A stretch of 64,000 nt of DNA from positions 1 through 64,000 of the IMG/VR virus record IMGVR_UViG_3300005563_000033. One strand, 5' to 3'. This stretch comes from a virus. Below are positions 12,203 through 64,000 of this stretch, in pieces. The notes under the pieces were generated by a model, which saw only the letters and a list, made by a program, of their open reading frames with translations, was not told where the DNA came from and searched no databases. Made by a program: the position numbers and the translations under genes. The first letter of the stretch is position 1. Every line of letters begins with the position of its first letter.

Positions 12203-12207
12203 TTCTT

Positions 12208-27251: not shown

Positions 27252-27472
27252 TAAAATTATCTTCCATACTACTAATGCTTTTTATTATTTTCACTGGATG
27301 TTATTCTCCGCGTGATTCTAATGGTCGATATTGGCCAGCAAAGTGTGTATGGAAGAGAGTGCTATCAAAAAAGGAACATAAGTCATTACCCCCATTTATA
27401 AAAATGCCCCGACAAAAAAGCCGGGGCCTAACCAAAGTAAATTCAGATGAAATTAAGCAGCACCCGTATTAA
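27248..27472 (+). CDS. Small putative lipoprotein
   Basis: ILLMLFIIFTG-C. Confidence 0.55.
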   Translation: MIKLSSILLMLFIIFTGCYSPRDSNGRYWPAKCVWKRVLSKKEHKSLPPFIKMPRQKSRGLTKVNSDEIKQHPY

Positions 27473-32679: not shown

Positions 32680-33017
32680 AGGAACTAAAGAAGCAGTTAG
32701 AGGCTGAAAAAAAAAGGAATAAGGCGTTGATTGAAAAGATAGCCGGGTATGAAGGCCCAAGCAAGGCAAAGCTTTACTATGCCATTAACCGACAGGTGTC
32801 AGATATGGCTGACATGATAAACTCTAAAAGCCTTAAAAATATAGATATATCGGATGGCTCAGATAAGAGTATTGAAAAAATGAAAATAATATGGGGTGCC
32901 GTTAAATCCCTATGTGAAATTCTCCCATTACTTGCTCAGTCTGCCGGTATAACCGGAAATGAAGAAGAGGACCTTAAAACCCCATTTATTGAAACCGTAG
33001 CCGAAACAAGAAAATAA
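32661..33017 (+). CDS. Possible terminase small subunit
   Basis: Helical 118-aa ORF directly before TerL (position only). Confidence 0.4.
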   Translation: MGDESIEELKKQLEAEKKRNKALIEKIAGYEGPSKAKLYYAINRQVSDMADMINSKSLKNIDISDGSDKSIEKMKIIWGAVKSLCEILPLLAQSAGITGNEEEDLKTPFIETVAETRK

Positions 33018-35087
33018 ATGCTGTCAGTAGACATATATGGCTCACTTTGTTACTATCCGGATGCTCCTCCGGATTCTTTAATTGAGGGGTGGGACCTGCC
33101 AAGGGAGGAACAATATTGGAGAAGAAAAGAACTGCCAGACTATTTCGACATTATTAACTATGATGAAGATAAAAATGCGATACTTACCCCACAACAGAAA
33201 GCATATGCATCAATAGAGGTACAACGTTGCAAAAAAGGGTATTGGTTCTTTAATAATGGCATTCCTACTTACATAACCGGGAAAAACTATTTCTATCTTC
33301 AGTGGTGGAAATTAGAGGACGATATACACCCAGACTATAGAGATGCAGATAGGAGGTATTTTTTATTCCTTGATAAGTGGGAAAACATTCTATGGTGTAT
33401 TGGCATAGGGAGAGGTAAAAAAAGACGCGAAGGCGCAAGCTCTCAGGCTACATCCAATTTAATTTATGAATGCATATTTTACACTAATAGTAATTGCGGT
33501 CTTGTAAGTAAAACAAATATAGACAGCAGAGACACCTTTACTGACATGGTATCTTTCGGCTACAATCAGTTGCCTGTATTCTTAAAGCCAAGGCAGTTAA
33601 ATAGGGCCGACAGTGTTACTGAACTTGTGTTTGCTGCAAGAGTAGGAAAGGGAGATGTGGCCGCAAAGGGTATGCGGTCTAAGGTAAATTATCGAGCCCC
33701 TGTAGAAAATGCATACGATAGAGGCCGCGTTTCGAGAGGGCTGTGGGATGAGGGCGGAAAATGGCCATTGGATGTGAAGTTCTCTAAATTCATTTCTAAG
33801 GTTACAAAGACAATGGTGAAAGGAGCCAAGCGCGTTGGGTTCGCTGAATGTCCATCAACTGTGAACGAAATGACAAAAGGGGGCGGCGCGGAGTATAAGG
33901 TATTTTGGGATGGAGCCAATCAATTTAAAAGTGGTGGCAAGAAAACAAAAAATAGATTTGTTACTTACTTCACTCCGGCATATGATAATTACGAAGGGTT
34001 TATTGATAAATACGGAATGTCCGTCATTGACGAACCTACAGAGGAGCAATATCAATACCTTGTTGAAAAATGGGTAGTTAAAGACCCTAATACCGGAGAA
34101 ACGGTTTCCGAAATATCGGAAGAAGATATTAGGCTAGGCGCAAGGAAGTATATTTATAGTAGGCGCGAAGGGTTAACGGGAGAGTTATTAGAAGAGGAGA
34201 TAAGGCAAAACCCATGCACTGTACAGGAGATGTTTGAGGCTGCCAATACAGATTGCGCCTTTAATTCCTATAATATCAATAAACGCAGAAAAGAACTTGA
34301 AGAAAAGCCTATATACAAAAGGAAGGTTCTGTTTTATAGAACGCTTGATCAAAAAGTAACCTTCCGGGATGTAGATGAAAAGAAAGACCCATTTTATTGG
34401 AGGATAACAGCCTTCCCGCCCCCGGGCCAAGAAAATATCTATAAAACAAATGCGGGAGTAAGAGAGCCAGGACGTACGCATGATGGAGTTATTGCCGTGG
34501 ATAGCTATTCTAATAGTCAGGGAGGGCGTAAATATGGCTCCAAAGCGTCTGCTTGGATAGGCAGAAGATTTGATATATTAGACCCAGAAAACACAGGGAA
34601 GCCAATAGGCCATCTTTACGGACGACCAGCAGACAAGGCTATACTTCACGACCAGTGTCTCTTAGCGGCAGAATACTTTGGTTTTAAAGTTTTTTATGAA
34701 CACACGGCAGATGATTACCTGTCCCACTATCGGGATAGGGGCAAATCCGGGTATTTAGGGACATACCCCATGAGTTTAATTGATCCGAATAAGCGGCATA
34801 ATGCAGATCGTTTCAAGGGTGTACCTATAACACCATTCAGCCTTACTAAGCAACTAGACAATGGGATTGCCTATTTCAACGACCATTGTGATTTGATAGA
34901 TTTTGAGGAACTACTTGAAAATGCGCTCATTTTTGATCCTTACGATAGGACGGCCTATGACTGCGTGGTAGCATTTCTGATTCTTGTATCTTGCCTGATG
35001 GAGCCTATAAATAAGCCAAGGAAACAAACCGAACCCTTGGTAACAGTCTACGAAAATCCCCTTTATGGTAGAAATTCAATGAATTAA
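33018..35087 (+). CDS. terL: Terminase large subunit (crAss-like type)
   Basis: YITGKNYFYLQW, KKRREGAS, WDEGGKW Walker B, nuclease AVDSY. Confidence 0.9.
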   Translation: MLSVDIYGSLCYYPDAPPDSLIEGWDLPREEQYWRRKELPDYFDIINYDEDKNAILTPQQKAYASIEVQRCKKGYWFFNNGIPTYITGKNYFYLQWWKLEDDIHPDYRDADRRYFLFLDKWENILWCIGIGRGKKRREGASSQATSNLIYECIFYTNSNCGLVSKTNIDSRDTFTDMVSFGYNQLPVFLKPRQLNRADSVTELVFAARVGKGDVAAKGMRSKVNYRAPVENAYDRGRVSRGLWDEGGKWPLDVKFSKFISKVTKTMVKGAKRVGFAECPSTVNEMTKGGGAEYKVFWDGANQFKSGGKKTKNRFVTYFTPAYDNYEGFIDKYGMSVIDEPTEEQYQYLVEKWVVKDPNTGETVSEISEEDIRLGARKYIYSRREGLTGELLEEEIRQNPCTVQEMFEAANTDCAFNSYNINKRRKELEEKPIYKRKVLFYRTLDQKVTFRDVDEKKDPFYWRITAFPPPGQENIYKTNAGVREPGRTHDGVIAVDSYSNSQGGRKYGSKASAWIGRRFDILDPENTGKPIGHLYGRPADKAILHDQCLLAAEYFGFKVFYEHTADDYLSHYRDRGKSGYLGTYPMSLIDPNKRHNADRFKGVPITPFSLTKQLDNGIAYFNDHCDLIDFEELLENALIFDPYDRTAYDCVVAFLILVSCLMEPINKPRKQTEPLVTVYENPLYGRNSMN

Positions 35088-35108
35088 TTAGGATTTTCAA
35101 AAAAATGT

Positions 35109-35116
35109 TATATTTG
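35109..35116 (+). promoter_or_regulatory. Bacteroidota -7 promoter box TATATTTG
   Basis: Exact TAnnTTTG upstream of the portal gene. Confidence 0.55.
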
Positions 35117-35136
35117 AACTAACTAACTCTTTTTCA

Positions 35137-37566
35137 TTGTATCCCGAAAATAGATCAGGGGACCCCGGCCCGCAGTCCGGTAATGTACTCAAAAACTTCC
35201 AGTTAACAACGGATAGTAAGAGTAAACTAGATTTCTCCTACGGGAAAAGTATAGCGGAATACATAGTCTCTACAATGGCTGGAACCAATAGCTATTACTG
35301 GTTACGGAACAATCGATATAAGCTCAATAGGAACGCAGCAGCCGGGAAAATAGATATGTCAAAATTCCAAGATCGCTTGGAAATGAACGGGAAGGACAAC
35401 TTTGCAAATTTAAATTGGCAAAGTATCAAGGTGGTCAATACGATCATAGCTCGTTTAGTAGCTCGTGGGATGAATAGCACTGAAAAGATTGTTGTAACCG
35501 CCGTAGATTCCCTTTCCCAAAAAGATAAGCAAGAAGAATATCAAGCCGCCGAATTTTACATGCGTCATCAACAGATGATCCGACAATTAGAACAAGCATC
35601 CGGCCAACAAATCATTCCTACTGGCCAATACATTCCAGAAGATCAAAATGAGCTAGACCTTTGGGCGGCTGAATATTTGGAACTTCCAGAAGAAATATTG
35701 TACGAAAAAACGGTCAATGATATATTAGCGGCGAATGGCTTTTTTGATGTGATAAAGGAAATGCAATTGCATGACAGTGATGAGGTTGGATTTGTTGGTA
35801 CATACACTTGGATGGATGAGTCTGGGGTTATTCACGTAGACCGAGTGAAGCCAGAAAATGCCATCTATTCGTATTCAGAATTTAATGATTTCAGGGATAC
35901 AGCTTGGCGTGGTCGAGCTTTCGATATGAAAATCAGTGAGTTTAGACGTAGATATGGTAAAGAATTTGGTGGCAAATTGACGGAGGAAGAGATTTGGCAA
36001 TACGCTATGACTTCCAAAGAATACCAGCTTGATGATAAAATACGCTGGCTCTTACAATGGAATACAATGATGTTACGACCTTATGACGAATGGAATATAG
36101 GTATGATCCATTTTGAATTAAGGAGCTTGGACAAAGACGATTACACTATCACCGAAACCCTTCAAAATAAAAGAACCTTTGTTGATCGGGGCGTCCCTAC
36201 TAATCTGAAACCCAATCAGGAATATGTAGCAGATGAATATTGGAATATCTATGAAGGGATGTTTGCCCGCGATAAGTGCGAAATGCTGGAATGGGGATTG
36301 AAGAAAAACATGATTCGCCCCCAAGACCCGAAAGAAATAGGTAACGCTGAATTCTCTTATAGCTTCTATATGCATCAAAATTACCAGATGCGTAATGTAG
36401 CTATCCCGGAAAAGATAGAGGAGCCGGTGGATCAAATGATATTGGCTCTTCTGAGGATTCAACAGTGTATTGCCACTATGCGGCCGCCCGGATCAGCCAT
36501 AAACGTAAGGGCATTAAGAGAGGTGGATTTGGGATTAGCAGACGGCACAAAACCTTTTGATGTAAAAAAAGTTTTTGACCAAAAAGGAGACTTGTATTAT
36601 ACGGACATGGATGCGGAAGGGAATATGATTCCCGGCTCTCCCGTAACGGCTGCCCCAGACGACGGCTTTATGAACAAACTACAAGCCCTGATTGCCGATT
36701 ATCAATTCCATCAGGCTGTTTTGCGAGATGAACTAGGAGAAGACCCCAATCTTATTTCCCAAGCAGCCAAACCCCGCGTTACCACAGAGAACATAAATAC
36801 TGCCCAAAATCAAAGCCTCTTAGCTACCGATTACTTTTATGACTCTTGGTTAAATTGCATGAAAGATACAGCCAAGAAAGTATGCTGTTTGATTCATGAC
36901 TCTGTTTATTACGGAGCATCAGTCTATAGGCATCTTTTAGGGGAGCAAGATGTAGAAGGGCGTGTGTTTACTTCTGACATACAAATGTTACCTACGGAGC
37001 AAGAGCAAGCTAACTTACAGGCCATGATGAATGAGATTATCCAAAGTAACCCTGAATTTTTGGTATACTGCGACACATTTAAGGTCATGCGGATGGCTAA
37101 GGAGGATTACAAACTTGCAGAGAAGTATTTGCGTCAATGTCAGAAAAAAATGATTCAAGGCCAAAAAGAACAAGCCGCGCAGAATACACAGTTGGCCGCA
37201 CAACAACAACAGGCAAGCAACCAACAGGCCGCTGAAAATGAAATGCAGATGGAGAAAATGAAGGCGGATTTAGAATCTCGAAAGAATGAGGAGTTAAGTA
37301 GGGCCAAAAAAGAAGAGCTATTTATTAACGGAATATTCTCTGTTTGGACAAAAGGGGGAACGCTACCACCCGAATTACAGGGGGTGGCTCAGGAGCTAAT
37401 CCAAAATGTAGGATTACCTTTATTTGCTCAAAATACAAAAAATAATGTAGCTTTAGCACAAGGAATGCAGGCCATGCAACAATCGGACCAGGGACAACAG
37501 GCCCCATCTGAAGATCAGCAAGAACCTGCCGAAACCGATCAATCACCACAAACTATGCAACAATGA
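35137..37566 (+). CDS. Portal protein
   Basis: 809 aa directly after TerL; long Q-rich C-terminal coil; size and position as in crAss-like phages. Confidence 0.85.
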   Translation: MYPENRSGDPGPQSGNVLKNFQLTTDSKSKLDFSYGKSIAEYIVSTMAGTNSYYWLRNNRYKLNRNAAAGKIDMSKFQDRLEMNGKDNFANLNWQSIKVVNTIIARLVARGMNSTEKIVVTAVDSLSQKDKQEEYQAAEFYMRHQQMIRQLEQASGQQIIPTGQYIPEDQNELDLWAAEYLELPEEILYEKTVNDILAANGFFDVIKEMQLHDSDEVGFVGTYTWMDESGVIHVDRVKPENAIYSYSEFNDFRDTAWRGRAFDMKISEFRRRYGKEFGGKLTEEEIWQYAMTSKEYQLDDKIRWLLQWNTMMLRPYDEWNIGMIHFELRSLDKDDYTITETLQNKRTFVDRGVPTNLKPNQEYVADEYWNIYEGMFARDKCEMLEWGLKKNMIRPQDPKEIGNAEFSYSFYMHQNYQMRNVAIPEKIEEPVDQMILALLRIQQCIATMRPPGSAINVRALREVDLGLADGTKPFDVKKVFDQKGDLYYTDMDAEGNMIPGSPVTAAPDDGFMNKLQALIADYQFHQAVLRDELGEDPNLISQAAKPRVTTENINTAQNQSLLATDYFYDSWLNCMKDTAKKVCCLIHDSVYYGASVYRHLLGEQDVEGRVFTSDIQMLPTEQEQANLQAMMNEIIQSNPEFLVYCDTFKVMRMAKEDYKLAEKYLRQCQKKMIQGQKEQAAQNTQLAAQQQQASNQQAAENEMQMEKMKADLESRKNEELSRAKKEELFINGIFSVWTKGGTLPPELQGVAQELIQNVGLPLFAQNTKNNVALAQGMQAMQQSDQGQQAPSEDQQEPAETDQSPQTMQQ

Positions 37567-37838
37567 GTGTAGTAGTAACCAACCAAGTTTCATCTCCTGC
37601 GAATGCCGGTCAATGCGCATTGGTAACACTTAATTCAGCAGATGCTTTGGCACAACTGCCTACATTGACAAATGGGACAAAGGCCACTTGTGGCTCAAGC
37701 TCAAAAGTTGGGTATGTAACTAATGTGGACGCATTGGGTAATACCTTTGAGGTAAGACCGGTTACACAACAGGCTAGATTTGATAGTTCAAGCACTCCGT
37801 ACATACTAAATGCTACAGAGTCAATAACTTTAGGGTAA
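37563..37838 (+). CDS. Putative minor head/decoration protein
   Basis: Beta-rich, S/T/A-rich, in the head module. Confidence 0.5.
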   Translation: MSVVVTNQVSSPANAGQCALVTLNSADALAQLPTLTNGTKATCGSSSKVGYVTNVDALGNTFEVRPVTQQARFDSSSTPYILNATESITLG

Positions 37839-37854
37839 CGAATAAAATATTTTT

Positions 37855-38208
37855 ATGGCTACATCCTCAGTACTTGATATATCGGCTGAATTTAATTCAG
37901 TAGGGCATAAGAATATAGATATGTCCGGGTGGGATTCGGTTACTATTCAATTAGTGACACCCACGGGAACTATCACATTTAATGGAACAAATGACGATGG
38001 AAGCGTAACGGGGAGCGTTCAGGGAAATGCAAATTCTGCTATTAACTGGACAGCTATTCAGGCAACCAACTTAAATACCGGTGCGGCGGCCACTACCGGC
38101 GCAGCGTCTGGGCTATGGAGGGTATCTGCGTTTCCCAGGTTCTTGCAATTAACCGGCAGTTCAGTTACGGCTGCTAAAATATTATTGTTCTTTAGTAAGA
38201 TTTGTTAA
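37855..38208 (+). CDS. Putative head decoration protein
   Basis: Beta-rich, jelly-roll-like composition (TITFNGTND..W). Confidence 0.5.
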   Translation: MATSSVLDISAEFNSVGHKNIDMSGWDSVTIQLVTPTGTITFNGTNDDGSVTGSVQGNANSAINWTAIQATNLNTGAAATTGAASGLWRVSAFPRFLQLTGSSVTAAKILLFFSKIC

Positions 38209-38211
38209 AAT

Positions 38212-38239
38212 ATTTCCACGTGGAACGTTCTGTGGAACA
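38212..38239. promoter_or_regulatory. parS-like palindrome plus half site
   Basis: ATTTCCACGTGGAACG (13/16 to TGTTCCACGTGGAACA), then TGTGGAACA. Confidence 0.45.
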
Positions 38240-38242
38240 GAA

Positions 38243-38268
38243 AGGCCCGCTGTAGAAACAGAAGGCCT
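38243..38268. other. Intergenic hairpin
   Basis: AGGCC-CG-CTGT-AGAA-ACAG-AA-GGCCT. Confidence 0.45.
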
Positions 38269-38325
38269 ATAAAAAATTGGTTAGTATCAGGACACAAGGT
38301 AGTGATTTTTAATCAACTATAATAT

Positions 38326-39486
38326 ATGCCTGATACGTTAGTTTCTCCGGGAGCCGCTCCCATTGATTTAGGGTTTGTAAATCCCTTTGATACTACGCTT
38401 GTAAAAGAGCCTGTAGTAACCCCTCCCGCACCTGCTGCCACCACGGAACCCGTGGTAACGCCGCCAACTCCTGAAGTAAAAGAACCGCCCGCGCCAGCCA
38501 CTCCCCCCAAAGAGGAAGATGATATTTTTGACGAAGTGCAATATGTAAAAAATACCTTCGGGTGGGATAACGTAGAAGCCGGGAAAGCCGAATTGGAACG
38601 CCTTCGCGCCTTGGAAAAGCAGCCTTTTAAGTTCCCCAATGCTGATAGCGAAGCGGCCTTTAATTATCTGAAAGAAGATAAGCTACCGGAATTGCACAGT
38701 CTATTAGACAAAAAGATAAAACTCAGTAAGGCCGATACGCTGGATGCAAAAAACGCTATTGCCCTTCACTTGCAAGTAACAAATCCGCACTTTACCCAAC
38801 AGGACATAGACGACGTATTGGAAGAAAGATACCCGGCTCCCGCACAGCCCAAAAAGGGAGCCGACGAAGAAGATGCCGAATTTGAGGCCCGGCAAAACGA
38901 ATACAAGGCCGCTATGGAAAAGATTAACCGGCGCATTAACCGGGACTCCTTGGCAGCTAAAGAAGACCTCAAAAAACTACATAGCGAACTCGTTCTCCCA
39001 GATATAAACAGAGTAGACCCAAAACTGGCTCAGGAAGCTGCCCAAAAGGAATTGGAAGCCACTCAGGCCAGGGAAAGGTTTCTGCAAACATTAGATCGCG
39101 ATTTCAAAAACGTTGAAGGGTTTAAGGCAACGTACAAAGACAAGGAAGTCGAAATACCGTTGTCCTACGACATTACCGACGAAGAAAAAGCGGCCTATAA
39201 AGAAAAGATCAAAACGCTCGATCTACGGGAGTATTTCGGACCGCGATGGTTCAATGAAGACGGCACTCCAAAAGTTAATAGGATCATTCGTGACCTATAC
39301 CGATTGGAGAATGAAGAAAAGGTTGATCAAAAACTTGTTAACGATGCCGGTTCCAAAAGAATGGAACAGTATTTAAAACAACGTAAGCAAATCAGTCTTG
39401 ACGGTAAAAAGCCGGAAGGAACCTTTGCGCCGGATATTACCAAAGAACAAGAGCAGCGTTTAGGAGAATGGGCATTTGCGAAATAA
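38326..39486 (+). CDS. Putative capsid scaffolding protein
   Basis: Pro-rich acidic N-terminus, helical body, directly upstream of MCP. Confidence 0.65.
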   Translation: MPDTLVSPGAAPIDLGFVNPFDTTLVKEPVVTPPAPAATTEPVVTPPTPEVKEPPAPATPPKEEDDIFDEVQYVKNTFGWDNVEAGKAELERLRALEKQPFKFPNADSEAAFNYLKEDKLPELHSLLDKKIKLSKADTLDAKNAIALHLQVTNPHFTQQDIDDVLEERYPAPAQPKKGADEEDAEFEARQNEYKAAMEKINRRINRDSLAAKEDLKKLHSELVLPDINRVDPKLAQEAAQKELEATQARERFLQTLDRDFKNVEGFKATYKDKEVEIPLSYDITDEEKAAYKEKIKTLDLREYFGPRWFNEDGTPKVNRIIRDLYRLENEEKVDQKLVNDAGSKRMEQYLKQRKQISLDGKKPEGTFAPDITKEQEQRLGEWAFAK

Positions 39487-42580: not shown

Positions 42581-43207
42581 ATGGATAGATACACTTTTTG
42601 CGAAAGGGCATTACGTCAAATATACGGAGAACAGCCTACGGATGATTCAAATATCACCGTAAATCTAGTCAATTCGTGGATTGGTGATGCCACCGCCTTC
42701 GCCGCAAAAAAGAACTGGACGGATAATATACAAATTGATCAGTTGGCGTATGTGAATAACGGGTTCTACACCACCTTCAAAAATATACCTGTTGTAGATG
42801 AAGGTGAACTTTTTTTATACAAAATAACCTTGCCTGAAATACCAGTAGGAATTGGGAGAAATGAAGGCGTTTCTACTTTACAATTCGTAGATTCTAGTGG
42901 GAATGTGTCAGACCCAGCTATCCCGTTGAGCCAAAATCAAGTTGGATATTATAGGGGGCAGCGCCAAATACCTAATAAAATATCCTATTACCCGGAAGGA
43001 ACATTTTTATACGCCATTTCTCCCTTGATTTTAAGTGACTATACAGCCAAGGTAAAAATGGTTAGCGCAGGCGATAGTACGGATTTGAATAGTACTTTAA
43101 ATGTTCCACAGGATTATTTTCAGCCAATGGTTGAGTATATAAAAATGCAGTTATCCTTTGAAAGGGCTCAAGTTAAAGATTTGCAGAACGATGGCCAAGA
43201 TTCATAA
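42581..43207 (+). CDS. Tail ring protein
   Basis: 208 aa in the ring cluster; YKITLPEIP, LNVP.DY. Confidence 0.6.
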   Translation: MDRYTFCERALRQIYGEQPTDDSNITVNLVNSWIGDATAFAAKKNWTDNIQIDQLAYVNNGFYTTFKNIPVVDEGELFLYKITLPEIPVGIGRNEGVSTLQFVDSSGNVSDPAIPLSQNQVGYYRGQRQIPNKISYYPEGTFLYAISPLILSDYTAKVKMVSAGDSTDLNSTLNVPQDYFQPMVEYIKMQLSFERAQVKDLQNDGQDS

Positions 43208-44469: not shown

Positions 44470-47400
44470 ATGGCTATTGCTCTACATAGATTTGCGGGTG
44501 CCATGGATTTGGATAGTCCGGATACAGTCAAACAAAAAGGACTGCATGGCCCAGCCCGTAATGGCATCTTTCGCGGAGTGCCTGGAAATTATCGGTGGGA
44601 GTCTAATGTAGGAAATACTTTACGGGCTAATCCCCTTTTGCCAAATACCGGAACGAATAAAAATATAGGCAGGCATTATGACCCGGTTAATCACCGGCTT
44701 TTTTCCTTTAACTGGAATAGTACAGGATTTCACGGGATTTACATATATGATACGCTCCTATCCACATGGTCTAGGCTGATTCAAACAGGCATTAATACCA
44801 TTGGAGACCCATTGGCCTTTACAGCTACGGTAAGAGTTCATAGTATTGACATTTTATACGGAGATGGGACAGCCGGAGACTTATTATTTTTTGTAGACAG
44901 CCAGAAAAGGCCGCGTAAGCTGAATATTCAACGGCTTTTAAATGGTGGGTATGTAAATGTAAGGGATAGTTTTCTAAAAGTTATCAAAGCTCCGCCAATA
45001 CCGCCTCCTAATTGCGTATACGAAAATGACACTACTGTAACAGCTAATAACGTTATAAACTCATTATTTAATTTCTGCTGTACGCATTTGTATGATGATG
45101 CGGAAGAGTCCGTTTTAGGAAGTGCGTGTATTCAGCCATTGCCACCCGATCCATTTGACCCTACGAATAATACACCCGCTTCAAGATGCGCCCGCATAGC
45201 TATTTACCTGCCAACGGGAGACGCCAATGTAAAAAAGATACGAGTATACGGCAAGCAAACAAAAGACGGAAACACAACCGATTGGTTTATTATTGATACG
45301 CTTATAAAGGCTGATTTGGGAATAGCTGATAATACAGTCTACAGGTATCTATTTTTTAATAACGGTAATTATATTCCAGCGGACATTGGTTTTGCTGTTT
45401 TGGATCAGGATTATGTTCCCCAAGCAGCCAATACACAATCTCTTATAAACGGCAGTGTCATTTCCTACGGAGGTATCACAGAGGGGTATAATTTTTTCAA
45501 TCCGTCCTTTGGGATTACTACTTCTAATGTCAATAGTCCCCAATTCATTGCCAATGGAACACTATTCTTTGCGGCTTTTAATGGGCAATTTACGGGCAAT
45601 CAACCGCAATTAACCGTATATTTAACAGGCGTCGGGACTAATGATGGGTTTGGCAATCCCCAAACATTGGAGAAATCCCCGCTTAACCTTATTGTATCGG
45701 CAACTTCCCGATTGGTTTCTATCGTAACAATTATCGACTTTAATTACGTAAATTCTACGAACTCCAACAATATACCATTCTTGTTAACCGCACTACAGGC
45801 ATCGGCGGTAACAGCAGGATGGGTAGTGGTATCTTCAACAGCTAATAGTTTTACTGTATATTACCCAACGGGTGTAATTTCTTTAAAATCTTCCCATACA
45901 GTAGGGTTTACCAACACATCTCCTTATTCATCTGCGGTTAGCTGTCATTTACCCGAATGCGCATACTCTTATGGTGTATTATATAGGGATGCAGATGGTC
46001 GTACGAACGGGGTTATTAGCAATGTAACCGGGAATATAAAAACACAAACCAGAGGGCCAGCCGGCCAGATACCGCAAATACAAATTGGATTAGCCGGTTT
46101 TACACCCCCGCTTTGGGCAGCTTATTACGAGATTGTACGAACGGATAATTTGACGTACAATAAAAGATTAGAGTGGATAAGCGACTCTGCATATAGCGAT
46201 ATAGCCCAAGTAAGTAATATCAAATATGCATACTTTGGCATCAGTAATATACAGTACTACAATGACAGTATAAAAGCTACTGAAGGGGTCGTAAGTTATG
46301 GATTTACGCCGGGAGATCGGATTAAGATTACGGGAAGGTATGATGTAAACGGTAACTTTTTTTCATTGGCATTTGATTATGCTATTTTGGGCGTTACCGT
46401 TGATCCGGTGATTAATGGTCAAGTACAACTGGGAACTTTCATTCAAATATCCTACCCAACGAATGACATAAGCCCTTCTTTTAAATTTGACGGTACGCAA
46501 GACTTTTTACAATATCAAGTGCTTATCTACTCGTACAAAGCCTTTGCCGCCACCAATCAAAACGTATATTTTCAAGTAGGCCATCAGTATGGTATAGGCA
46601 ATCCAGGTACCCTAACTGCCTTCCATTATGGCAATACGGCAGATAATCAAGTAACGCTGACAGACGGGGATGTTTTTTACCGAACGCGGACCGTACCTAT
46701 TATAAACACCTTCTACATGCCAATGGGTTCCTATGAACAAGGGGACCAATACATGACCATTTGGACCTATGCGGGCGGCATTAATCCTTTATCTGATAAC
46801 GCTATTTGGAATGTAGGGGGTGACATACAAAGACCAGCTAGTTTAGACGCGGCTGCGTTCCCGACTTCTGCCAGTGCCGGATGGGTAGTCCAAAACAAGT
46901 CAGCCAACCAGTTTAGCGTACGATTAAGAGGGTCGATTACGGCCATTGAAAAAACGGACCCTAACGGAGCATTTGCGCTGTATGTGAAAGTTGTTCTGCC
47001 AGGACAGGCATTTATCTACAATGTAGTTCCTCAAAAACCAGGATTGAAAGTAGGCGACACGAATTTGTACGAATACGACATAACCATTCCCGTGCCCGCC
47101 GGGGGAAAATTGTGGATTGTAGATTATGTGTTGCTGGATATGCTCATAGGCGGAAGTCCCTTAAGGATAGATATTATCCGGTACATTACACAGAACGTAT
47201 TTGACTACTCCTTTAGTGATATTTATAAGCTGGTAACCAACTCAGATAATAAACCCAACATCATAGATGCAACGGCGTTAAGTACGTATTACAGTACCTT
47301 GTTTCGGTTCAGCCAACCAGATCAATTAGGAACTAATATAAATAATTCCAATCGTTTTTACTTTAATAACTTTGATGAATTTGATAAATCTTTTGGAGAT

Positions 47401-48447
47401 ATTATTAGGATGCGTGTCCGACAAAGGGAGCTTAGGGTTTTTCAATATAGGAGGTGTGGCCAAGTAGGAATTTATCAAAAATTCATCAAGGGTAACACGG
47501 GATCAAACCAGTTGATAACAACCGATACAATTATTACGCCCAATAACATTCATTATTTTGAGGGAGAGTTTGGTATAGGCAACCAGCCGGATAGCTTGTG
47601 TAGTTCTGGTTATCAGGACTATTTTGCTGATCCAGTAAAAGGATATTGGTGCAGACTTTCTTTAAACGGCATAGAACCTATCAGCGAATTGTATAAGGTA
47701 CAAACATTAGCAGGTAATAGGCTTCCTATCTATCTCAATAATTATAACAATGTAAGGGGCGGCTACGCTGTTATTTTGGGAGCCTTTAATTTTTGCAAAG
47801 ACAGGGATGGAGAAGTGATATTTTCTATGCAATCAGGCACAACAAGTGCCGTATCTTTTGCCGGACCTAGCAGTACAACCATAACACAAGGCGCTATTTT
47901 TGGTATATCTCCAAGTACAATACCAGGAGAATCTATTCAATTTAACGAGTCTAAAAATGGATGGACTTCTTTTATGGACGTGGACCCGGATAGTATAGTG
48001 TGCTGTGAAAACCTGCTTATGAGTTCAGTAAATGGAGAATGGTATACCCATGATAATACGTCTGCATATGCCAATTATTTTGGTACTCAGTTCCCATGTA
48101 GTATAACTATTCAGATTAACGATAATTTGGTAGAAAAGAAAACTTTTCTTAGCCTCACAGAAGTGGCGAATCAAATATGGGAATGCCCGTCTATTACAAC
48201 TAATCTGATGAGCTACGGAACTACTCCGCAGCAAAGTAATTTGGTGGCGGAAGATTTTGCGGCCTTGGAAAGTACGTTTAATTCTAGTTTTTGGAGAGAT
48301 GCCAACTCGATTGGTGGCCAATTTAACGGTAATGCTTTGAAGGGGAACTTAATTGTTATACAATTCCAAGTGACCAATCCGGCCAATTTCGTAAATTTAA
48401 CTGACATTTCGGTGCATTACATTGAGTCACGAAGAAACAATAGATAA
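44470..48447 (+). CDS. Tail muzzle / stabilization (nozzle) protein
   Basis: 1325 aa; GAMDLD start, LFFVD..PRKLNI, EFGIGNQPDS, RLSLNGIEPIS, FNESKNGWTSF; beta-propeller-like. Confidence 0.8.
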   Translation: MAIALHRFAGAMDLDSPDTVKQKGLHGPARNGIFRGVPGNYRWESNVGNTLRANPLLPNTGTNKNIGRHYDPVNHRLFSFNWNSTGFHGIYIYDTLLSTWSRLIQTGINTIGDPLAFTATVRVHSIDILYGDGTAGDLLFFVDSQKRPRKLNIQRLLNGGYVNVRDSFLKVIKAPPIPPPNCVYENDTTVTANNVINSLFNFCCTHLYDDAEESVLGSACIQPLPPDPFDPTNNTPASRCARIAIYLPTGDANVKKIRVYGKQTKDGNTTDWFIIDTLIKADLGIADNTVYRYLFFNNGNYIPADIGFAVLDQDYVPQAANTQSLINGSVISYGGITEGYNFFNPSFGITTSNVNSPQFIANGTLFFAAFNGQFTGNQPQLTVYLTGVGTNDGFGNPQTLEKSPLNLIVSATSRLVSIVTIIDFNYVNSTNSNNIPFLLTALQASAVTAGWVVVSSTANSFTVYYPTGVISLKSSHTVGFTNTSPYSSAVSCHLPECAYSYGVLYRDADGRTNGVISNVTGNIKTQTRGPAGQIPQIQIGLAGFTPPLWAAYYEIVRTDNLTYNKRLEWISDSAYSDIAQVSNIKYAYFGISNIQYYNDSIKATEGVVSYGFTPGDRIKITGRYDVNGNFFSLAFDYAILGVTVDPVINGQVQLGTFIQISYPTNDISPSFKFDGTQDFLQYQVLIYSYKAFAATNQNVYFQVGHQYGIGNPGTLTAFHYGNTADNQVTLTDGDVFYRTRTVPIINTFYMPMGSYEQGDQYMTIWTYAGGINPLSDNAIWNVGGDIQRPASLDAAAFPTSASAGWVVQNKSANQFSVRLRGSITAIEKTDPNGAFALYVKVVLPGQAFIYNVVPQKPGLKVGDTNLYEYDITIPVPAGGKLWIVDYVLLDMLIGGSPLRIDIIRYITQNVFDYSFSDIYKLVTNSDNKPNIIDATALSTYYSTLFRFSQPDQLGTNINNSNRFYFNNFDEFDKSFGDIIRMRVRQRELRVFQYRRCGQVGIYQKFIKGNTGSNQLITTDTIITPNNIHYFEGEFGIGNQPDSLCSSGYQDYFADPVKGYWCRLSLNGIEPISELYKVQTLAGNRLPIYLNNYNNVRGGYAVILGAFNFCKDRDGEVIFSMQSGTTSAVSFAGPSSTTITQGAIFGISPSTIPGESIQFNESKNGWTSFMDVDPDSIVCCENLLMSSVNGEWYTHDNTSAYANYFGTQFPCSITIQINDNLVEKKTFLSLTEVANQIWECPSITTNLMSYGTTPQQSNLVAEDFAALESTFNSSFWRDANSIGGQFNGNALKGNLIVIQFQVTNPANFVNLTDISVHYIESRRNNR

Positions 48448-58558: not shown

Positions 58559-59071
58559 ATGCCGATAGTCCCCAACGTATCTTTAGGATCGGTTAACACC
58601 GGAGCGACAATCGATCCTAGTGCGATTATCGCTCAAGATATTTCTACGGGTTCCGATGTGGCTATAGCGTCGCGGCAAATTCTCCTATATACAGTACAGA
58701 ATGCACAATTTGTCGCGGCTATTCCTTGGCCCTTGGCGACAAATCCAATTACAATAAATCCCCTTACGCAAGACATCGCACTTAACTGCGTAATTAATTG
58801 GTTAGATGGAAGCGGGAATGTCCTTTATACATTTTCTGCAATACAATCATTTACGGGGTATGGGGAGAATTTTGCCTATAATTTAATTCAGACCGAAGAG
58901 TCTTCACCCGGCATTTTACAGGATACAAACTATCAGAATTACGTAAATACGCTTAATAATTATTTAGTTTCTGCTGTAAGAGCTATTTCCGTAGGGCAGA
59001 GTTTAAAAAATGCTCAATTGATGATACTGAAAGAGCAATATTTGGTAACTAATTCAAATAGGTATTATTAA
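58559..59071 (+). CDS. Putative tail hub/structural protein
   Basis: Beta N-terminus and helical C-terminus; start of the fibre module. Confidence 0.55.
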   Translation: MPIVPNVSLGSVNTGATIDPSAIIAQDISTGSDVAIASRQILLYTVQNAQFVAAIPWPLATNPITINPLTQDIALNCVINWLDGSGNVLYTFSAIQSFTGYGENFAYNLIQTEESSPGILQDTNYQNYVNTLNNYLVSAVRAISVGQSLKNAQLMILKEQYLVTNSNRYY

Positions 59072-59940
59072 TGCCAAGCGAATACTCTATACAAACCATT
59101 TTGTCTATCGCTGATATTAGTCAATATTTGGCCAATGCCGATAATGACAAACAAACCTTTTTCAAAGGCGGAACGCTTGATCCACTATTGGGCAGAACTA
59201 TTTATAGGATAAGAAGGTCTTTGGGATTAAGATTTCAGGCCGCTCCGAACGATACAACTTTAAGAGGAACAGCAGAGTATCTTTTATCATTATGTGGGCC
59301 TTATGCCTTACAAGCAAAGCAAATATTGAACAATCTGGGCCAATCTCCCCCAGTGATAACAGGACCAAATAACCAAAGCGTTCTCGTAGGGCAGACCGGA
59401 ACGTTTAGCGTATCGGTTACAGGAACAGCACCATTCGCTTATCAGTGGTATCTCAACTCTGTTCTTATACCGGGAGCCACAAGTAGTTCTTATTCTAAAA
59501 CAAATGCGCAGCTTACTGATAGTGGTGGGGTATATTTCGTAAAAGTAAGCAATCCTGCCGCACCTTCAGGAGTATTTAGTAATACAGCTACTTTGACGGT
59601 TACGGCTGTATTACAGGGCTTTTTCGCTTATATGGACACTGATCCAGGCCCAGACTTGCAAGCCAATTTAGACCCATTCACTTATCAATCGACTTTTGCC
59701 ATAACGCACAATGCCCCCTTTGTAATAACCTTACCGGGAGCCAGTACGCCGAATAAATACCTTATTGTAAAAGTTCCTATTGGAGAATCTGTAAAATCAA
59801 CGTGGTTCAATACTCCGCTGAATAATGGCACTATACCGGATAGCGTATGGCAGTCATTGATACAATTTGGCGGATTTTCATATTATTACACGCGGGTAGC
59901 TGCCAGCATGGACACTTCACAAACTTTAACTCTTTCATAA
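59071..59940 (+). CDS. Ig-domain structural protein (fibre adaptor-like)
   Basis: PVITGPNNQSVLVGQTGTFSVSVTGTAPFAYQWY..DSGGVYFVKVSN (I-set-like). Confidence 0.75.
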   Translation: MPSEYSIQTILSIADISQYLANADNDKQTFFKGGTLDPLLGRTIYRIRRSLGLRFQAAPNDTTLRGTAEYLLSLCGPYALQAKQILNNLGQSPPVITGPNNQSVLVGQTGTFSVSVTGTAPFAYQWYLNSVLIPGATSSSYSKTNAQLTDSGGVYFVKVSNPAAPSGVFSNTATLTVTAVLQGFFAYMDTDPGPDLQANLDPFTYQSTFAITHNAPFVITLPGASTPNKYLIVKVPIGESVKSTWFNTPLNNGTIPDSVWQSLIQFGGFSYYYTRVAASMDTSQTLTLS

Positions 59941-60518
59941 TGAATGAATTTGTAGACATAAAAGGATTCGAAGGTTTTTTTAAAATCAACTCTATTGGTG
60001 AGGTATTTAGTTATGACAGGGTTGTAAATACTGGCAACGGATTTTACATTATGAAAGCAAAAAAATTAGCCATTGTTATAAGACAAAAATACCCGTCAGT
60101 ATCATTATGCATGAATGGCGGAAGAGTCAAGAAATTTCTCCACGTGTTATTGGCAGAGCATTTTATTCCCAATCCGAATAACTTTAAATTTGTTAGGCAT
60201 TTGAATGATGATAAATTAGATTTTCGGTTGGAAAACCTGGCGTGGGGTACGCATGCCGATAACGCCGCAGACGCCATAAGAAATGGTAAATTTGTCTTTT
60301 TGAAGCCGGAAAATAATCCTCAAACTGGCAAGAAAGGAAAATTAAGTATGTTTTATAGGGAGAAGAGCGGTCGCGCAAGACTAGTCTTAGATTTAAATAC
60401 TGGCATTTTTTATGAAACTGCGAAAGATGCTGCCGAAGCAAAAAATGTTAAATACAAGGGACTGGCTAGAAAATTATTAGGGCGCAGAAAAAATAATACA
60501 GGAATGGTTTATGTATAA
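59940..60518 (+). CDS. NUMOD4-HNH homing endonuclease
   Basis: DIKGFEGFFKINSIGEV, HVLLAEHFIPNP..VRHLNDDKLD..LENLAWGT..N; ATG overlaps the upstream TAA. Confidence 0.85.
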   Translation: MNEFVDIKGFEGFFKINSIGEVFSYDRVVNTGNGFYIMKAKKLAIVIRQKYPSVSLCMNGGRVKKFLHVLLAEHFIPNPNNFKFVRHLNDDKLDFRLENLAWGTHADNAADAIRNGKFVFLKPENNPQTGKKGKLSMFYREKSGRARLVLDLNTGIFYETAKDAAEAKNVKYKGLARKLLGRRKNNTGMVYV

Positions 60519-60536
60519 ATAATAAAATTGAACGAT

Positions 60537-63500
60537 ATGGCTCCAAAAGAAAGAAGGAGGTTAGGGAATAAATATCCCTCCCTCTTTCTGACGATAATCA
60601 TACTATTATTATGCGTTAAAGTAAATTCTCAGACGTATAATCCTAGCTTACATACGGTTACAAATAAGGCTCTGGGGATAGCGCAAGCAACACCTACGGA
60701 TGCTCGTAGTATGTTCTATGATCAGACAAATTTTATTTACAGACCCTATCAATCTATTGTTGAGGTTAAAACATATTTGAATCTAGCAAAATATCGAACT
60801 GGTAATTTCTTAATTGTAGTCGATTCCGGAGGTTTATTGCAACCGAACGGCGTGTATGTCGGGGGGCATAATAATTTTTGGATGTTTAAAGATTCTACGG
60901 CAGATGCAAATCTCATAGAATTAAATCTTCAAGGAAGTTCCGGAAGTTGTGCTGGATGTCTTTTGGCTGTTAATAATCTAAGTGATTTAGCTAATGCTAC
61001 AACCGCTCGATCTAACCTTGGCTTAGGTTCCATATCTACATTGTCATCTACCGCATCAGGAGGTGACGCGTCGGGGAACTGGCCTGCCATCACCGTAAAC
61101 TCAATTCAAGGGAAGAATTTAGCCTACATAACCAACTATCTCAATTTAAGTAACACTCCGGCAATTCCAAGTCAATTAAACCCAACAGGACTAGGTTTAG
61201 TAACCATAACGGGGGTATACCCCAATCTTACGTGGACTGGAAGAACACCGGGAATCGAGGAAACTATTTTCGCGAATAATGCTACGTCTCGAACTGACTC
61301 TCTTAATATAGGAGCTTTCTTGTTTAGGATGTATGGTACATCTGCTTTTGGACTTCCCAAGGGTACAACAGCACAAAGACCGTCCTCTGCTGCTGCCGGT
61401 GACACCAGATGGAATACGGATAGTTTAAAGAAAGAAACATTTGACGGTGCTTCATGGGTAACAGATGGAAGCGGGGGAGGGGGTGGAGGCGGTATTACAG
61501 CCCTTACAGGAGACGGTACGGCATCAGGAACAGGATCAGTACCTTTCACCTTAGCAACAGTTAATAGTAATGTCTTTGGCTCCAATACCTTTTTGAAATT
61601 TGGGGTGAATGGCAAAGGTTTGGTAACAAGTGCGACCGCCGTAGGATCAGGAGATATTACGGGAGCTTTGGGCTTCACTCCTTATAATGCTACCAATCCG
61701 GCAGGATACATTTCTAACATAACAGGACTCGTAACTCAGGGTACGGAAATAAGTATAACGGGTTCTGGAACGTCTGGGACACCTTACGTAGTCAATTCTA
61801 AGGCCAATATCCGGACGGTTAAAACAATAGCCAATTTGTATGCGCTACCTACGGCAGGGTTAACGGACAGTGCGGTGGTTGTGGTTACGGATACAGTTGC
61901 AGGTGGACCTATGATGTGGATTTCCACTACAACTACTGTAGAAGATTCGGGAACAATATTCAAACCAACTGCCATTAGTTCGGGAAGCCCTGGCCGGTGG
62001 ATACGTCAATACAACGGGTTAAAAAGTTTGCATTTTTGGGGTGTGAACGGCGACAATAGCACCAACGTTACAAGACGTACACAGCTTGCTATGAATAGTT
62101 GTGTGGGTGGTACTTTATATGTTCCATCGGGGATATACCTGATCGACTCTCTTATTTATCCAGCGCAATTATCCATGAGAGGGGAAAGCCGTAGGAATAC
62201 ACGCTTCCAGGCAACCGCCAGCGGTGCCCAATCTTTCATACGTCTTGGCCCCGGTCAGTCTAATGAAATTTATTGGACAGATATATCCATTGTAGCCAAT
62301 GCCAGTAACGTAGGTCAAAAAGGATTTGACTTTACGGCGGTTCCGGGGTCAACTACGGGTGGTTTGTGGAACTTCGAAATGGACAGAGTGGATGTAACGA
62401 ATTTCAGAGGTACGGGTATTAACCTATACTGTCATGATGGAGCCTTTGATATGGCGCATCAATTCCTAACTTTCCGTCAAGTAAGAGTCTATTGTACCAC
62501 CGATACAGCCTCTCATGCCGTGGTATGGGATGGGCAAGTCAACCAGACAACTTTTGATGATTGCGAATTCGATTGCCCTAGTTGGGCAGCCGGAACGAGA
62601 GGCGTTGTTTTGATTAGTGGAGGCGCAAGCAATGACCAGATCGTAGGAGGCAATACTTTTCATAACATATCGGTTCAAGGGTTTGATCAGGCTGTATATA
62701 CTTATAATGCACAAGGGGTAAGTTTCACGCAGGATTATTTTGAGTCAGACAGCGTTGGCATCTATGCCACCAATAGTTCCCGCATTACCGTGTACGACAT
62801 TCACCTGTCCAATGTAGGTAACACCAGATACGTGTTTGGGAATGACAATAGCGTAATGGACATTCTAGGATACCGGCTAACTCCCAACCCCATCACCGGA
62901 AAATTCTATACCTCTCCGGGCGGAACTTCGGGCGGCGGCGTTATTCAACGTGGTGTTGGGCAAACAACCAATACCGTAACAACTGTTTTTACCGGGCAGA
63001 ACATAAACGTCTCTGCTAACACCTTAAACACGGGTTATTTTACCGACATTATAACCAACGTAAGCAGTTCTGTATCCAGCTATGTAACGACCATTAACAG
63101 CAATCTTAGCCCAACGGAGCATCTTTTTATAAGAGCTTATGACGCATCTCATACCAGCAATAATGCTTTGTTATTTAAATCGGGCGGTAATATATCTCTT
63201 CCCGGTAGTTTAGATAGCGGAATGCTGGTATTGCATGACGGACAATCGGCAGAGTTTGCACGTACTGACATTGGCACTAGTGTATGGGCTTTGGTGCCTT
63301 CGTCTATTACGCCCTTATACATGAGTGCCTTTCCAACTACTGGCTTGTGGATTACTGGCAACGTTGTTTATAACAGCAATCCAACTTTCGGAACGGCTGG
63401 GATATGGGTATGTAAGAAAGGGGGCATTGGAGCAGCAGCTTTATGGGATAGTCTTGTAGTGGGAGCAGGGGGCGGAAGCGGAGGGACTAATTCAAATGTG

Positions 63501-64000
63501 GGTTCCGGGTATCGCTTGGCAATACCGACCACCAACAATATAAAAACTATTTTTGGTAGCACTTTTATTTCGTGGGATTCTACTTCAAATACCAATGCGC
63601 TGACCTCTAAAATAGCCAATGGAACCGCTAATAATATACTGGGTTGGGATGGGTCTGGGAATCCAGCTTCGTTAGCCCCCGATACTTTGTTTGTAAAAAA
63701 TAGAGTGTCAGGAACAGGGGTTCAAGTAGGGAATATATCAAACGACACGCTGTATTTGAATAATCTAAACGGCAGCACCTTCATATCGCAGGCGAAAAAT
63801 TCCGACAGTTCCATAACAACCGCAATAGCCAATTCTACGGCCAATACTCTTTTAGGGTGGAATGGGTCCGGAGTACCGACGAATATAACAGCAGGATCAG
63901 GAATCACAATATCTGGTGGCGTTATAAGTTCAAGTGGTGGCTCTAGCGCCTTAACCAATACGCATATTTTCGTAGGAAACGCCTCTAACATAGCCACAGA
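60537..64000 (+). CDS. Tailspike/fibre with N-terminal Sec signal peptide and beta-helix (pectate-lyase-3-like) domain; 3' partial
   Basis: Absent from the ORF track because there is no stop; by hand it is open for 1154 codons; NNLSDLANATTARSNLGL, LPKGTTAQRP, FWGVNGD..GGTLYVPSGIYLI, PTTGLW..VYNSNP..WVC. Confidence 0.85.
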   Translation, partial: MAPKERRRLGNKYPSLFLTIIILLLCVKVNSQTYNPSLHTVTNKALGIAQATPTDARSMFYDQTNFIYRPYQSIVEVKTYLNLAKYRTGNFLIVVDSGGLLQPNGVYVGGHNNFWMFKDSTADANLIELNLQGSSGSCAGCLLAVNNLSDLANATTARSNLGLGSISTLSSTASGGDASGNWPAITVNSIQGKNLAYITNYLNLSNTPAIPSQLNPTGLGLVTITGVYPNLTWTGRTPGIEETIFANNATSRTDSLNIGAFLFRMYGTSAFGLPKGTTAQRPSSAAAGDTRWNTDSLKKETFDGASWVTDGSGGGGGGGITALTGDGTASGTGSVPFTLATVNSNVFGSNTFLKFGVNGKGLVTSATAVGSGDITGALGFTPYNATNPAGYISNITGLVTQGTEISITGSGTSGTPYVVNSKANIRTVKTIANLYALPTAGLTDSAVVVVTDTVAGGPMMWISTTTTVEDSGTIFKPTAISSGSPGRWIRQYNGLKSLHFWGVNGDNSTNVTRRTQLAMNSCVGGTLYVPSGIYLIDSLIYPAQLSMRGESRRNTRFQATASGAQSFIRLGPGQSNEIYWTDISIVANASNVGQKGFDFTAVPGSTTGGLWNFEMDRVDVTNFRGTGINLYCHDGAFDMAHQFLTFRQVRVYCTTDTASHAVVWDGQVNQTTFDDCEFDCPSWAAGTRGVVLISGGASNDQIVGGNTFHNISVQGFDQAVYTYNAQGVSFTQDYFESDSVGIYATNSSRITVYDIHLSNVGNTRYVFGNDNSVMDILGYRLTPNPITGKFYTSPGGTSGGGVIQRGVGQTTNTVTTVFTGQNINVSANTLNTGYFTDIITNVSSSVSSYVTTINSNLSPTEHLFIRAYDASHTSNNALLFKSGGNISLPGSLDSGMLVLHDGQSAEFARTDIGTSVWALVPSSITPLYMSAFPTTGLWITGNVVYNSNPTFGTAGIWVCKKGGIGAAALWDSLVVGAGGGSGGTNSNVGSGYRLAIPTTNNIKTIFGSTFISWDSTSNTNALTSKIANGTANNILGWDGSGNPASLAPDTLFVKNRVSGTGVQVGNISNDTLYLNNLNGSTFISQAKNSDSSITTAIANSTANTLLGWNGSGVPTNITAGSGITISGGVISSSGGSSALTNTHIFVGNASNIAT

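Follow-up and report, generated by a model that had tools for sequence, protein, structure and literature searches.

Described systems and the locus

The assembly of tailed-phage particles is held to take place wholly in the cytoplasm, and we know of no earlier case in which general periplasmic glycosylation decorates the host-recognition proteins of a tailed phage. The present analysis concerns a fibre gene that may depart from this picture. It starts at position 60,537 of the window, i.e., the first 64 kb of a 77,352-bp linear IMG/VR viral record (IMGVR_UViG_3300005563_000033; CheckV completeness 67%), and encodes a protein of 2321 amino acids (aa) with a predicted cleavable signal peptide and an excess of the Bacteroidota O-glycosylation motif. 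No paper was found on Sec-exported or host-glycosylated tail fibres of tailed phages. Among described particles, that of PhicrAss001 carries the fibre gp22, which docks by residues 1–26 into the THA2/THB hub (PMC10172136). The likeness to our phage lies in the crAss-like particle genes near the fibre, with weak ring and muzzle matches and giant cargo-type proteins, in the trimeric-fibre type, and in the extreme N-terminus as the likely docking element. However, residues 1–26 of gp22 are present in the virion, hence it has no cleaved signal, unlike our fibre, and neither signal peptides nor glycosylation are mentioned for PhicrAss001 (PMC10172136). A tblastn search of GenBank phage records with the first 1154 aa returned only Bacillus phage and cyanophage matches and no crassvirus fibre.

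Cellular systems offer the other half of the comparison. Substrates of signal peptidase I (SPI) in Bacteroidota follow a Q-rule, with Gln at the +1 position (PMC5837995, PMC10653852), and the O-glycosylation sequon D-(S/T)-(A/I/L/V/M/T) is enriched in noncytoplasmic Bacteroidota proteins, where its sites are generally almost fully glycosylated; engineered sequons also become glycosylated, and glycosylation works across species (PMC12871550). Both Gln +1 and sequon enrichment are in common with our fibre, although the known substrates are cellular proteins. Phages are not mentioned in the review of this O-glycosylation (PMC12871550), and the five Q-rule proteins described from Porphyromonas gingivalis prophages have unknown functions and are not fibres (PMC10367356). 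The exported WceF of Pantoea stewartii resembles our fibre as a trimeric beta-helix with a tailspike fold that acts on surface polysaccharide, but it has a Tat signal (it is exported folded), belongs to an exopolysaccharide cluster, and shows no fibre shaft or virion context (PMC7949094). The MAT fibres of Bdellovibrio bacteriovorus are encoded in the chromosome of a predatory bacterium and displayed on the cell; neither virions nor Bacteroidota O-glycosylation play a part there (PMC10769870). Finally, the XD docking domain of the CBA120 TSP4/T4 gp10 type has the same fold as the C-terminal 90 aa of our fibre; in CBA120 it is N-terminal and carries other tailspikes, whereas in our protein it lies at the extreme C-terminus.

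Export signal and sequon enrichment

The predicted signal peptide covers aa 1–31 (60,537–60,629, + strand). It consists of an n-region, MAPKERRRLGNKYP, with a net charge of +4, a 13-residue h-region, SLFLTIIILLLCV, where the hydrophobicity of 11-residue stretches reaches its maximum for the entire protein (Kyte-Doolittle 3.4), and a c-region, KVNS. The cut is predicted at KVNS↓QTYNPS, with Val at −3, Ser at −1 and Gln (Q32) at +1. An initial annotation, made from the letters alone, had described such an open reading frame (ORF), with a basic n-region, a hydrophobic h-region and a V-x-S site followed by Gln, and this description holds. It had also named a true start downstream of the h-region as a possible refutation, and this is contradicted: the next in-frame Met is residue 62, within the conserved N-terminal domain (N-domain), and a start downstream of the h-region is improbable because initiation at Met62 would truncate the family domain. 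The question raised there, whether homologues of the N-domain keep the signal, can be answered from a HMMER (phmmer) search of 1.84 billion representatives with residues 1–140 as query, in which 567 clusters passed E ≤ 1e-3 and 451 passed E ≤ 1e-10. A hydrophobic N-terminus is kept in 143 of the 150 best representatives of these 567 clusters (about 95%). All 142 signal-bearing representatives examined have Gln at the aligned +1 site; 136 of them have G/A/S at −1 and 132 have A/G/S/V/T at −3. The h-region sequence drifts freely, and conservation starts right after the predicted cut, with the pattern (G/A/S)↓Q-T-Y-N-P-S. The data support an N-terminus that behaves as a conserved, cleavable Sec/SPI signal obeying the Bacteroidota Q-rule.

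Other export routes were considered. A Tat substrate was rejected: the n-region contains RRR, but RR occurs in only 13 of 161 homologues and the (S/T)-R-R-x-F-L-K consensus in none of them. A lipoprotein processed by signal peptidase II was also rejected, as none of the 161 homologues has a Cys at or beside the cleavage site, and the protein's own Cys26 is not conserved. No sorting domain of the type IX secretion system (Por_Secre_tail, TIGR04183, TIGR04131) was matched in Pfam or NCBIfam at E ≤ 10 with the whole protein or its last 107 or 322 aa, although a divergent version could escape such a search. Within the family, two signal classes are found, a short MKK-type of 17–21 residues and a long one of 29–33 residues, whose semi-conserved n-region, R-x-L-x-D/N-K-Y-R(-x-L), is present in 64 of 160 members (about 40%). 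Proteins with a long signal are the larger ones (median length 1431 aa, against 962 aa for the short class, with kinship ignored), and the long signals recall the extended signal peptides of autotransporters.

The second line of evidence is the sequon. The whole fibre contains 25 sequons, with 9.1 expected (none of 2000 shuffles reaches 25; Poisson p = 1e-5), and the part inside the window has 12 vs 4.4 expected, in agreement with the dozen or so counted in the initial annotation. The enrichment had been called modest there; in fact, the excess is 2.3- to 3-fold, and only signal-bearing proteins show it, both in the family and in related phages. Pooling the 25 other ORFs of the phage gives 34 sequons with 27 expected. 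The observed-to-expected ratio (O/E) is 2.34 (1608/688) for 150 signal-bearing homologues and 0.89 (33/37.1) for ten signal-less ones (Mann–Whitney p = 6e-6), while three ambiguous, probably start-truncated homologues are sequon-rich, as expected if they are really signal-bearing. Control motifs are not enriched: O/E is 0.64 for D-S/T followed by other residues, 1.03 for N-S/T-hydrophobic, 0.57 for E-S/T-hydrophobic and 0.93 for the reversed motif. At seven loci, our own and those of six relatives, signal-bearing proteins from outside the family reach 2.26, and signal-less proteins 1.05. Ten fibre or fibre-region proteins of a cyanophage, a Bacillus phage and Cellulophaga phage phi38:1 have an O/E of 0.96. 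The fibres of phi38:1 have no signal, so the signal is not general to fibres of Bacteroidota phages. The sites are also better preserved than control motifs, with 17 of 17 sequons but 47 of 67 control motifs kept in the about 80% identical homologue P0002 (Fisher p = 0.005).

A wider comparison was made with 56 viral contigs (L016–L071) gathered via the 170-aa marker protein encoded upstream of the fibre. In 22 of them, large downstream fibre-like genes encode a signal with Gln at +1, and the mature N-termini of the signal-bearing fibres fall into at least four different families, QTYNPS included. The fibres at the same position in the other 34 contigs have ordinary N-termini, e.g., MAIQGLLSGDLKV. 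The sequon O/E is 2.98 (341/114.3) for 28 signal-bearing fibres and 0.49 (54/110.2) for 37 signal-less ones (p = 1e-11, although p-values overstate independence here since the two groups are clades and not phylogenetically independent). A few shaft modules are common to both groups. In these genomes, the exported proteins thus take the place of conventional tail fibres and share a reservoir of modules with them. Separately, it was observed that signal-less proteins of these contigs lie below the compositional expectation (O/E 0.37–0.68 for upstream proteins, 0.49 for fibres); therefore, the contrast with exported proteins is about six-fold.

If the fibre is exported, its glycosylation would follow almost automatically, because sites of this motif are nearly fully occupied and engineered motifs are glycosylated (PMC12871550). 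On these grounds, we consider export of the fibre highly probable and its O-glycosylation likely, and very probably the fibre matures outside the cytoplasm. Export, cleavage before Gln32 and O-glycosylation together form the best reading of the sequence.

The homologues that have no signal are also informative. About ten signal-less clusters start with M-[A/S/P]-[Y/F]-N-P, exactly at the predicted +1 position. Those of L007/L008 and L009 are truly signal-less, because stop codons lie 9 and 13 codons, respectively, upstream of their ATGs. Residue 2 always permits removal of the initiator Met; therefore, signal-bearing and signal-less forms should expose nearly the same N-terminal peptide. Two of these genes encode short proteins consisting mainly of the N-domain (L007:1402-2595, 397 aa; L009:8001-8642, 213 aa) and are followed by one to three large signal-bearing proteins with unrelated mature N-termini. 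Such a split layout might keep an adaptor in the cytoplasm apart from fibres that are exported. A narrower alignment scan for the N-domain found two viral loci and one match in a Gammaproteobacteria metagenome-assembled genome, the latter rejected because it failed in frame, and the signal-less P0083 and P0095 used as queries had no match in viral contigs.

Domain architecture and gene neighbourhood

The fibre is a mosaic with an N-domain conserved across the 567 clusters and a variable remainder. For the full-length protein nothing was found in Pfam, NCBIfam or PHROGs, and the domains emerge only from fragment scans; a PDB sequence search with the whole fibre gave no match. The N-domain covers aa 32–135 (60,630–60,941, +; motifs QTYNPS, PTDARS, YRPYQS, IVVDSGG and FKD). 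The AlphaFold2 model is confident for aa ~50–135 (predicted local distance difference test score, pLDDT, 85–95) and of low confidence for aa ~32–50, although the first ~25 mature residues are conserved. These residues are a candidate docking peptide: a conserved free N-terminal peptide would suit a docking element like that of PhicrAss001 gp22, which docks by its residues 1–26. The fold of the N-domain is left unassigned, with no Foldseek match in PDB and a best VIA Z of 2.7; its best matches in BFVD have no more than borderline E-values (1e-3 to 2e-2) and belong to an uncultured phage, to a crAss-like virus and to Cellulophaga phage phi18:1. Just past the N-domain lies a CxxC motif, C138-A-G-C141 (60,948–60,959, +), present in 45 of 150 signal-bearing and 0 of 10 signal-less homologues, and a Cys-Cys pair at mature positions 6–7 has a similar distribution (30 of 150 vs 0 of 10). 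Both may form periplasmic disulfides, possibly inter-chain ones in the case of CxxC. There is no general disulfide signature, with 4.2 Cys per 1000 residues in signal-bearing and 5.1 in signal-less homologues.

The initial annotation had proposed fibre or spike motifs followed by a beta-helix, and both were recovered. A DUF2793-like shaft motif (GxxxxRP..G..RWN...DG..W; aa 254–329; 61,296–61,523, +; phrog_1325, E = 5e-12), followed by a Gly run, is 55–65% identical to T4-like cyanophage proteins adjoining an annotated tail fibre gene, and the homologue P0173 contains Pfam DUF2793. A right-handed beta-helix of the pectate-lyase/rhamnogalacturonase type, a candidate depolymerase, is predicted at aa 430–1000 (61,824–63,536, +). 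Its ESM Atlas neighbours are PF12708 (Pect-lyase_RHGA_epim) clusters (score 0.95, 190 shared features), and aa 527–759 share 24% identity (tblastn) with a Bacillus phage Goe8 protein adjoining a putative pectate lyase. The distal part begins in the window (63,537–64,000, +) and continues to record position 67,502, where the gene (L002:2538-9503) ends. It comprises shaft modules at aa 1000–1260, a GDSL/SGNH esterase at aa ~1359–1533 (Lipase_GDSL_2, E = 3.5e-12 on L002:6300-7300), further beta-rich parts and a conserved C-terminal domain of 90 aa (aa 2232–2321; 50–83% identity in ~25 homologues; pLDDT >90). The best structural match of the latter is CBA120 TSP4 (7rej_A) residues 79–173, with Z 9.0, a value barely above the usual background of 7–8, an rmsd of 2.7 over 87 aligned residues and 21% identity; five of the next six matches are phage virion proteins (tail, baseplate, capsid spike). 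Among the homologues, SASA esterase, BNR sialidase, Beta_helix and GDSL domains occur.

The fibre ORF runs from the ATG at 60,537, with an in-frame TTG at 60,528 ahead of it, and stays open to the window end. On its 5′ side the gene order is terminase, portal, capsid-type, ring/muzzle-like, a 2135-aa cargo-type giant, and 323-aa, 170-aa and 289-aa Ig_3 proteins; on its 3′ side, an RCC1/PKD protein, a PAS protein, holin-like membrane proteins, a DUF6808 protein and a TIGR02594 endolysin. The fibre gene thus lies in the late structural module, between cargo/adaptor genes and lysis genes, and the same order is found in three relatives (L004, L005, L010). The 289-aa protein (59,071–59,940, +; Pfam Ig_3, E = 7e-7) has no signal, as had been noticed initially together with its Ig domain. 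It is a candidate adaptor or hub, since in the three relatives, as here, its gene keeps its place upstream of the fibre. The signal-less 170-aa lineage marker (58,559–59,071, +; alignment A6), which has a homologue at this position in the 56 viral contigs, is another candidate hub or adaptor partner. Between the Ig and fibre genes there is an HNH/NUMOD4 homing endonuclease gene (59,940–60,518, +; Pfam HNH_3 and NUMOD4; phrog_59, E = 1.6e-33), whose ATG overlaps the Ig gene stop (TAATG) and whose own stop lies 18 nt ahead of the fibre ATG. It is an insertion outside the fibre system that accounts for the gap, because the three relatives lack it and have the fibre directly after the Ig gene.

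A check of downstream fibre genes for signals had also been suggested, and the gene next to the fibre does encode one. The RCC1-repeat and K319L-like PKD protein (532 aa; L002:9507-11105, i.e., record positions 67,506–69,104, beyond the window) begins with MKTILTILFSWAFIANA, cut before QTVKQ (ANA↓Q), and has 7 sequons with 2.2 expected. When every ORF of the record was screened by rule for a signal plus Gln, the fibre and this neighbour were the only two large proteins to show the pattern. Homologous signal-bearing RCC1-like proteins are encoded downstream of the fibre in L004, L007 and L067.

The closest GenBank terminases come from Flavobacterium, Cellulophaga and Maribacter phages (23–27% identity); therefore, the host belongs to the Bacteroidota. 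Weak Pfam matches at 42,581–43,207 and 44,470–48,447 of the window, to crassvirus ring protein 2 (CrAss_Ring_2, E 5e-4) and the muzzle C-terminal domain (crAss_MUZ_C, E 6e-4), both below curated cut-offs, suggest a crAss-like tail. The only other large tail protein of the phage resembles the crassvirus muzzle protein, which leaves the exported proteins as its sole fibre candidates. Elsewhere in the window, small ORFs of the early or middle region have lipoprotein- or signal-like N-termini (11,744–12,651, − strand; 25,535–25,951, +; 27,248–27,472, +), with ends such as ...LLVAS↓C, ...ICIYA↓C and ...IFTG↓C, and may encode envelope-targeted accessory proteins.

Proposed fibre assembly and competing explanations

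We propose that the protein is the receptor-binding tail fibre and depolymerase of a crAss-like Bacteroidota phage, routed through the host envelope and attached to the particle after lysis; a probability of roughly 0.5 seems appropriate for this reading as a whole. The initial annotation had already suggested export, possible glycosylation and joining of virions at lysis through the Ig protein, and it is supported in part: the comparisons speak for export and glycosylation, and conserved synteny is what speaks for the Ig protein as a candidate adaptor. Late in infection, the 31-residue extended signal would take the 2321-aa precursor to the Sec translocon, and SPI would cut before Gln32, freeing the conserved QTYNPS end. 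Gln32 would probably then close to pyroglutamate, as happens in SPI substrates of the host. In the periplasm, the general system of the host would O-glycosylate many of the 25 sequons, and the glycosylated chain would then trimerise into a fibre with the pectate-lyase-like helix, the SGNH esterase and the XD-like distal domain; the signal-bearing RCC1/PKD neighbour would reach the same compartment. Once holin and endolysin open the envelope, mature fibres could meet fibre-less particles and dock onto the signal-less hub or adaptor proteins via the free N-terminal peptide and domain, like gp22 of PhicrAss001. That the fibres join virions at or after lysis is plausible, and it is the least certain step of the proposal. 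P22 tailspikes and T4 fibres, which attach to particles in vitro, provide an analogy for it.

The best, though indirect, support for a place on virions comes from Cellulophaga phage phi18:3 (Pachyviridae), a cultured phage whose terminase is distantly related to that of our phage (26.6% identity). Its gp085, gp086 and gp087 (L074, record positions 32,891–38,583), encoded by consecutive late genes just upstream of lysis genes, are annotated as "virion structural protein", "structural protein" and "tail protein", in each case from tandem mass spectrometry (MS/MS) proteomics, and all three have a signal plus Gln (...SFGYS↓QV, ...GVSA↓QT and ...GLNA↓QT). They are shorter than our fibre (547–785 vs 2321 aa). 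No paper was found that discusses the signals of these three proteins.

Several points weigh against the proposed assembly. The phi18:3 proteins have no sequence homology to our fibre or its N-domain and contain 3 sequons where 9.6 are expected, in contrast to the metagenomic fibres with a signal, and their detection by MS/MS could reflect secreted proteins that co-purified with virions. Among 50,697 GenBank phage records, none matches the N-domain even at E ≤ 1, so that no cultured phage is seen to carry it, and the domain is not strictly tied to export, since signal-less N-domain proteins occur in L007 and L009. The lineage-wide contrast is one between clades, as stated above. Capsid and tail, which form in the cytoplasm, are separated from the periplasm until lysis, and attachment would have to be fast, efficient and extracellular. 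In addition, export, cleavage and glycosylation are all read from sequence and its comparison.

The lysis step is the one at which another explanation parts from ours. The protein could be exported and glycosylated and never become part of the virion, acting instead as a free or envelope-bound depolymerase or esterase, or as an adhesin. The initial annotation had likewise considered a cell-surface depolymerase or exclusion factor, and we regard this as the main rival, though less likely than our own reading. Such an enzyme might strip the glycans of the infected cell from the periplasmic side, with receptor destruction, superinfection exclusion or less sticking of progeny to debris as the result, or it might be a stable soluble enzyme that is released at lysis and digests the surrounding matrix; its N-domain would then fix it to some component of the envelope, in the manner of the Bdellovibrio MAT fibres. 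All evidence for export fits this explanation equally well. The domains are of the receptor-destroying type (the pectate-lyase-like helix and GDSL here, SASA esterase and BNR sialidase in homologues), and the signal-bearing neighbours, i.e., RCC1/PKD, esterase-like and other non-fibre proteins, resemble a set of secreted enzymes. MAT fibres share the plan of a signal, a conserved ~130-aa beta-rich domain and a chimeric fibre, and they are borne by the cell (PMC10769870), while WceF shows that a cell can export an enzyme with the tailspike fold (PMC7949094). However, the phage would then be left without a recognisable receptor-binding protein, given the muzzle-like nature of its other large tail protein, and at the corresponding place in the genome signal-less relatives in the lineage encode ordinary cytoplasmic fibres, which swap modules with the exported ones. 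The signal-less N-domain proteins suit docking to a virion better than anchoring in an envelope, the C-terminal domain folds like a tailspike-docking (XD) domain, and signal-bearing proteins of phi18:3 were found in virion preparations.

The remaining explanations deny export itself. The N-terminus might be an uncleaved membrane tether or timing device at the inner membrane face, or be removed by a phage protease, with the fibre assembled in the cytoplasm and unglycosylated. Phages do use N-terminal signal-like segments as membrane tethers, as in signal-anchor-release (SAR) endolysins, the parts of tailed phages are otherwise known to assemble in the cytoplasm, and the long, partly conserved n-region of 64 out of 160 members hints at a function beyond targeting. 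Nevertheless, we find such a tether improbable: the 13-residue h-region is too short for a stable span, agreement with the −3/−1 rule and Gln at +1 in more than 90% of 142 homologues are sensible only if host SPI cuts, and sequons that are conserved and whose enrichment tracks the signal are hard to explain without periplasmic glycosylation. A signal that is an annotation artefact, caused by a true start downstream or by a spurious extension from the HNH insertion, has almost no likelihood. The homing endonuclease does lie immediately upstream, and Bacteroidota genes have no strong Shine–Dalgarno sites to fix a start, but L004, L005 and L010, which have no HNH gene, carry the same signal 18 nt past the Ig gene, Met62 falls inside the conserved domain, and the signal is encoded in the 143 of 150 homologues, which come from independent assemblies.

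If the envelope-routed fibre proposed here is real, it would represent a new assembly route for tailed phages, in which fibres are attached at lysis or extracellularly. Virions would carry host-type glycans on their receptor-binding proteins, with consequences for protease resistance, recognition by gut immunity and phage–host specificity, and such fibres made in the E. coli cytoplasm would have neither the processing nor the glycans. The pattern is not a one-off, given the 567 N-domain clusters, and the 22 signal-bearing and 34 ordinary contigs serve as natural controls for each other. More tentatively, a whole clade of crAss-like and related Bacteroidota phages may make heads and tails in the cytoplasm and export their fibres, tailspike enzymes and lectin-like proteins, which would be trimmed to a pyroglutamate end, glycosylated and joined to the particles at lysis.

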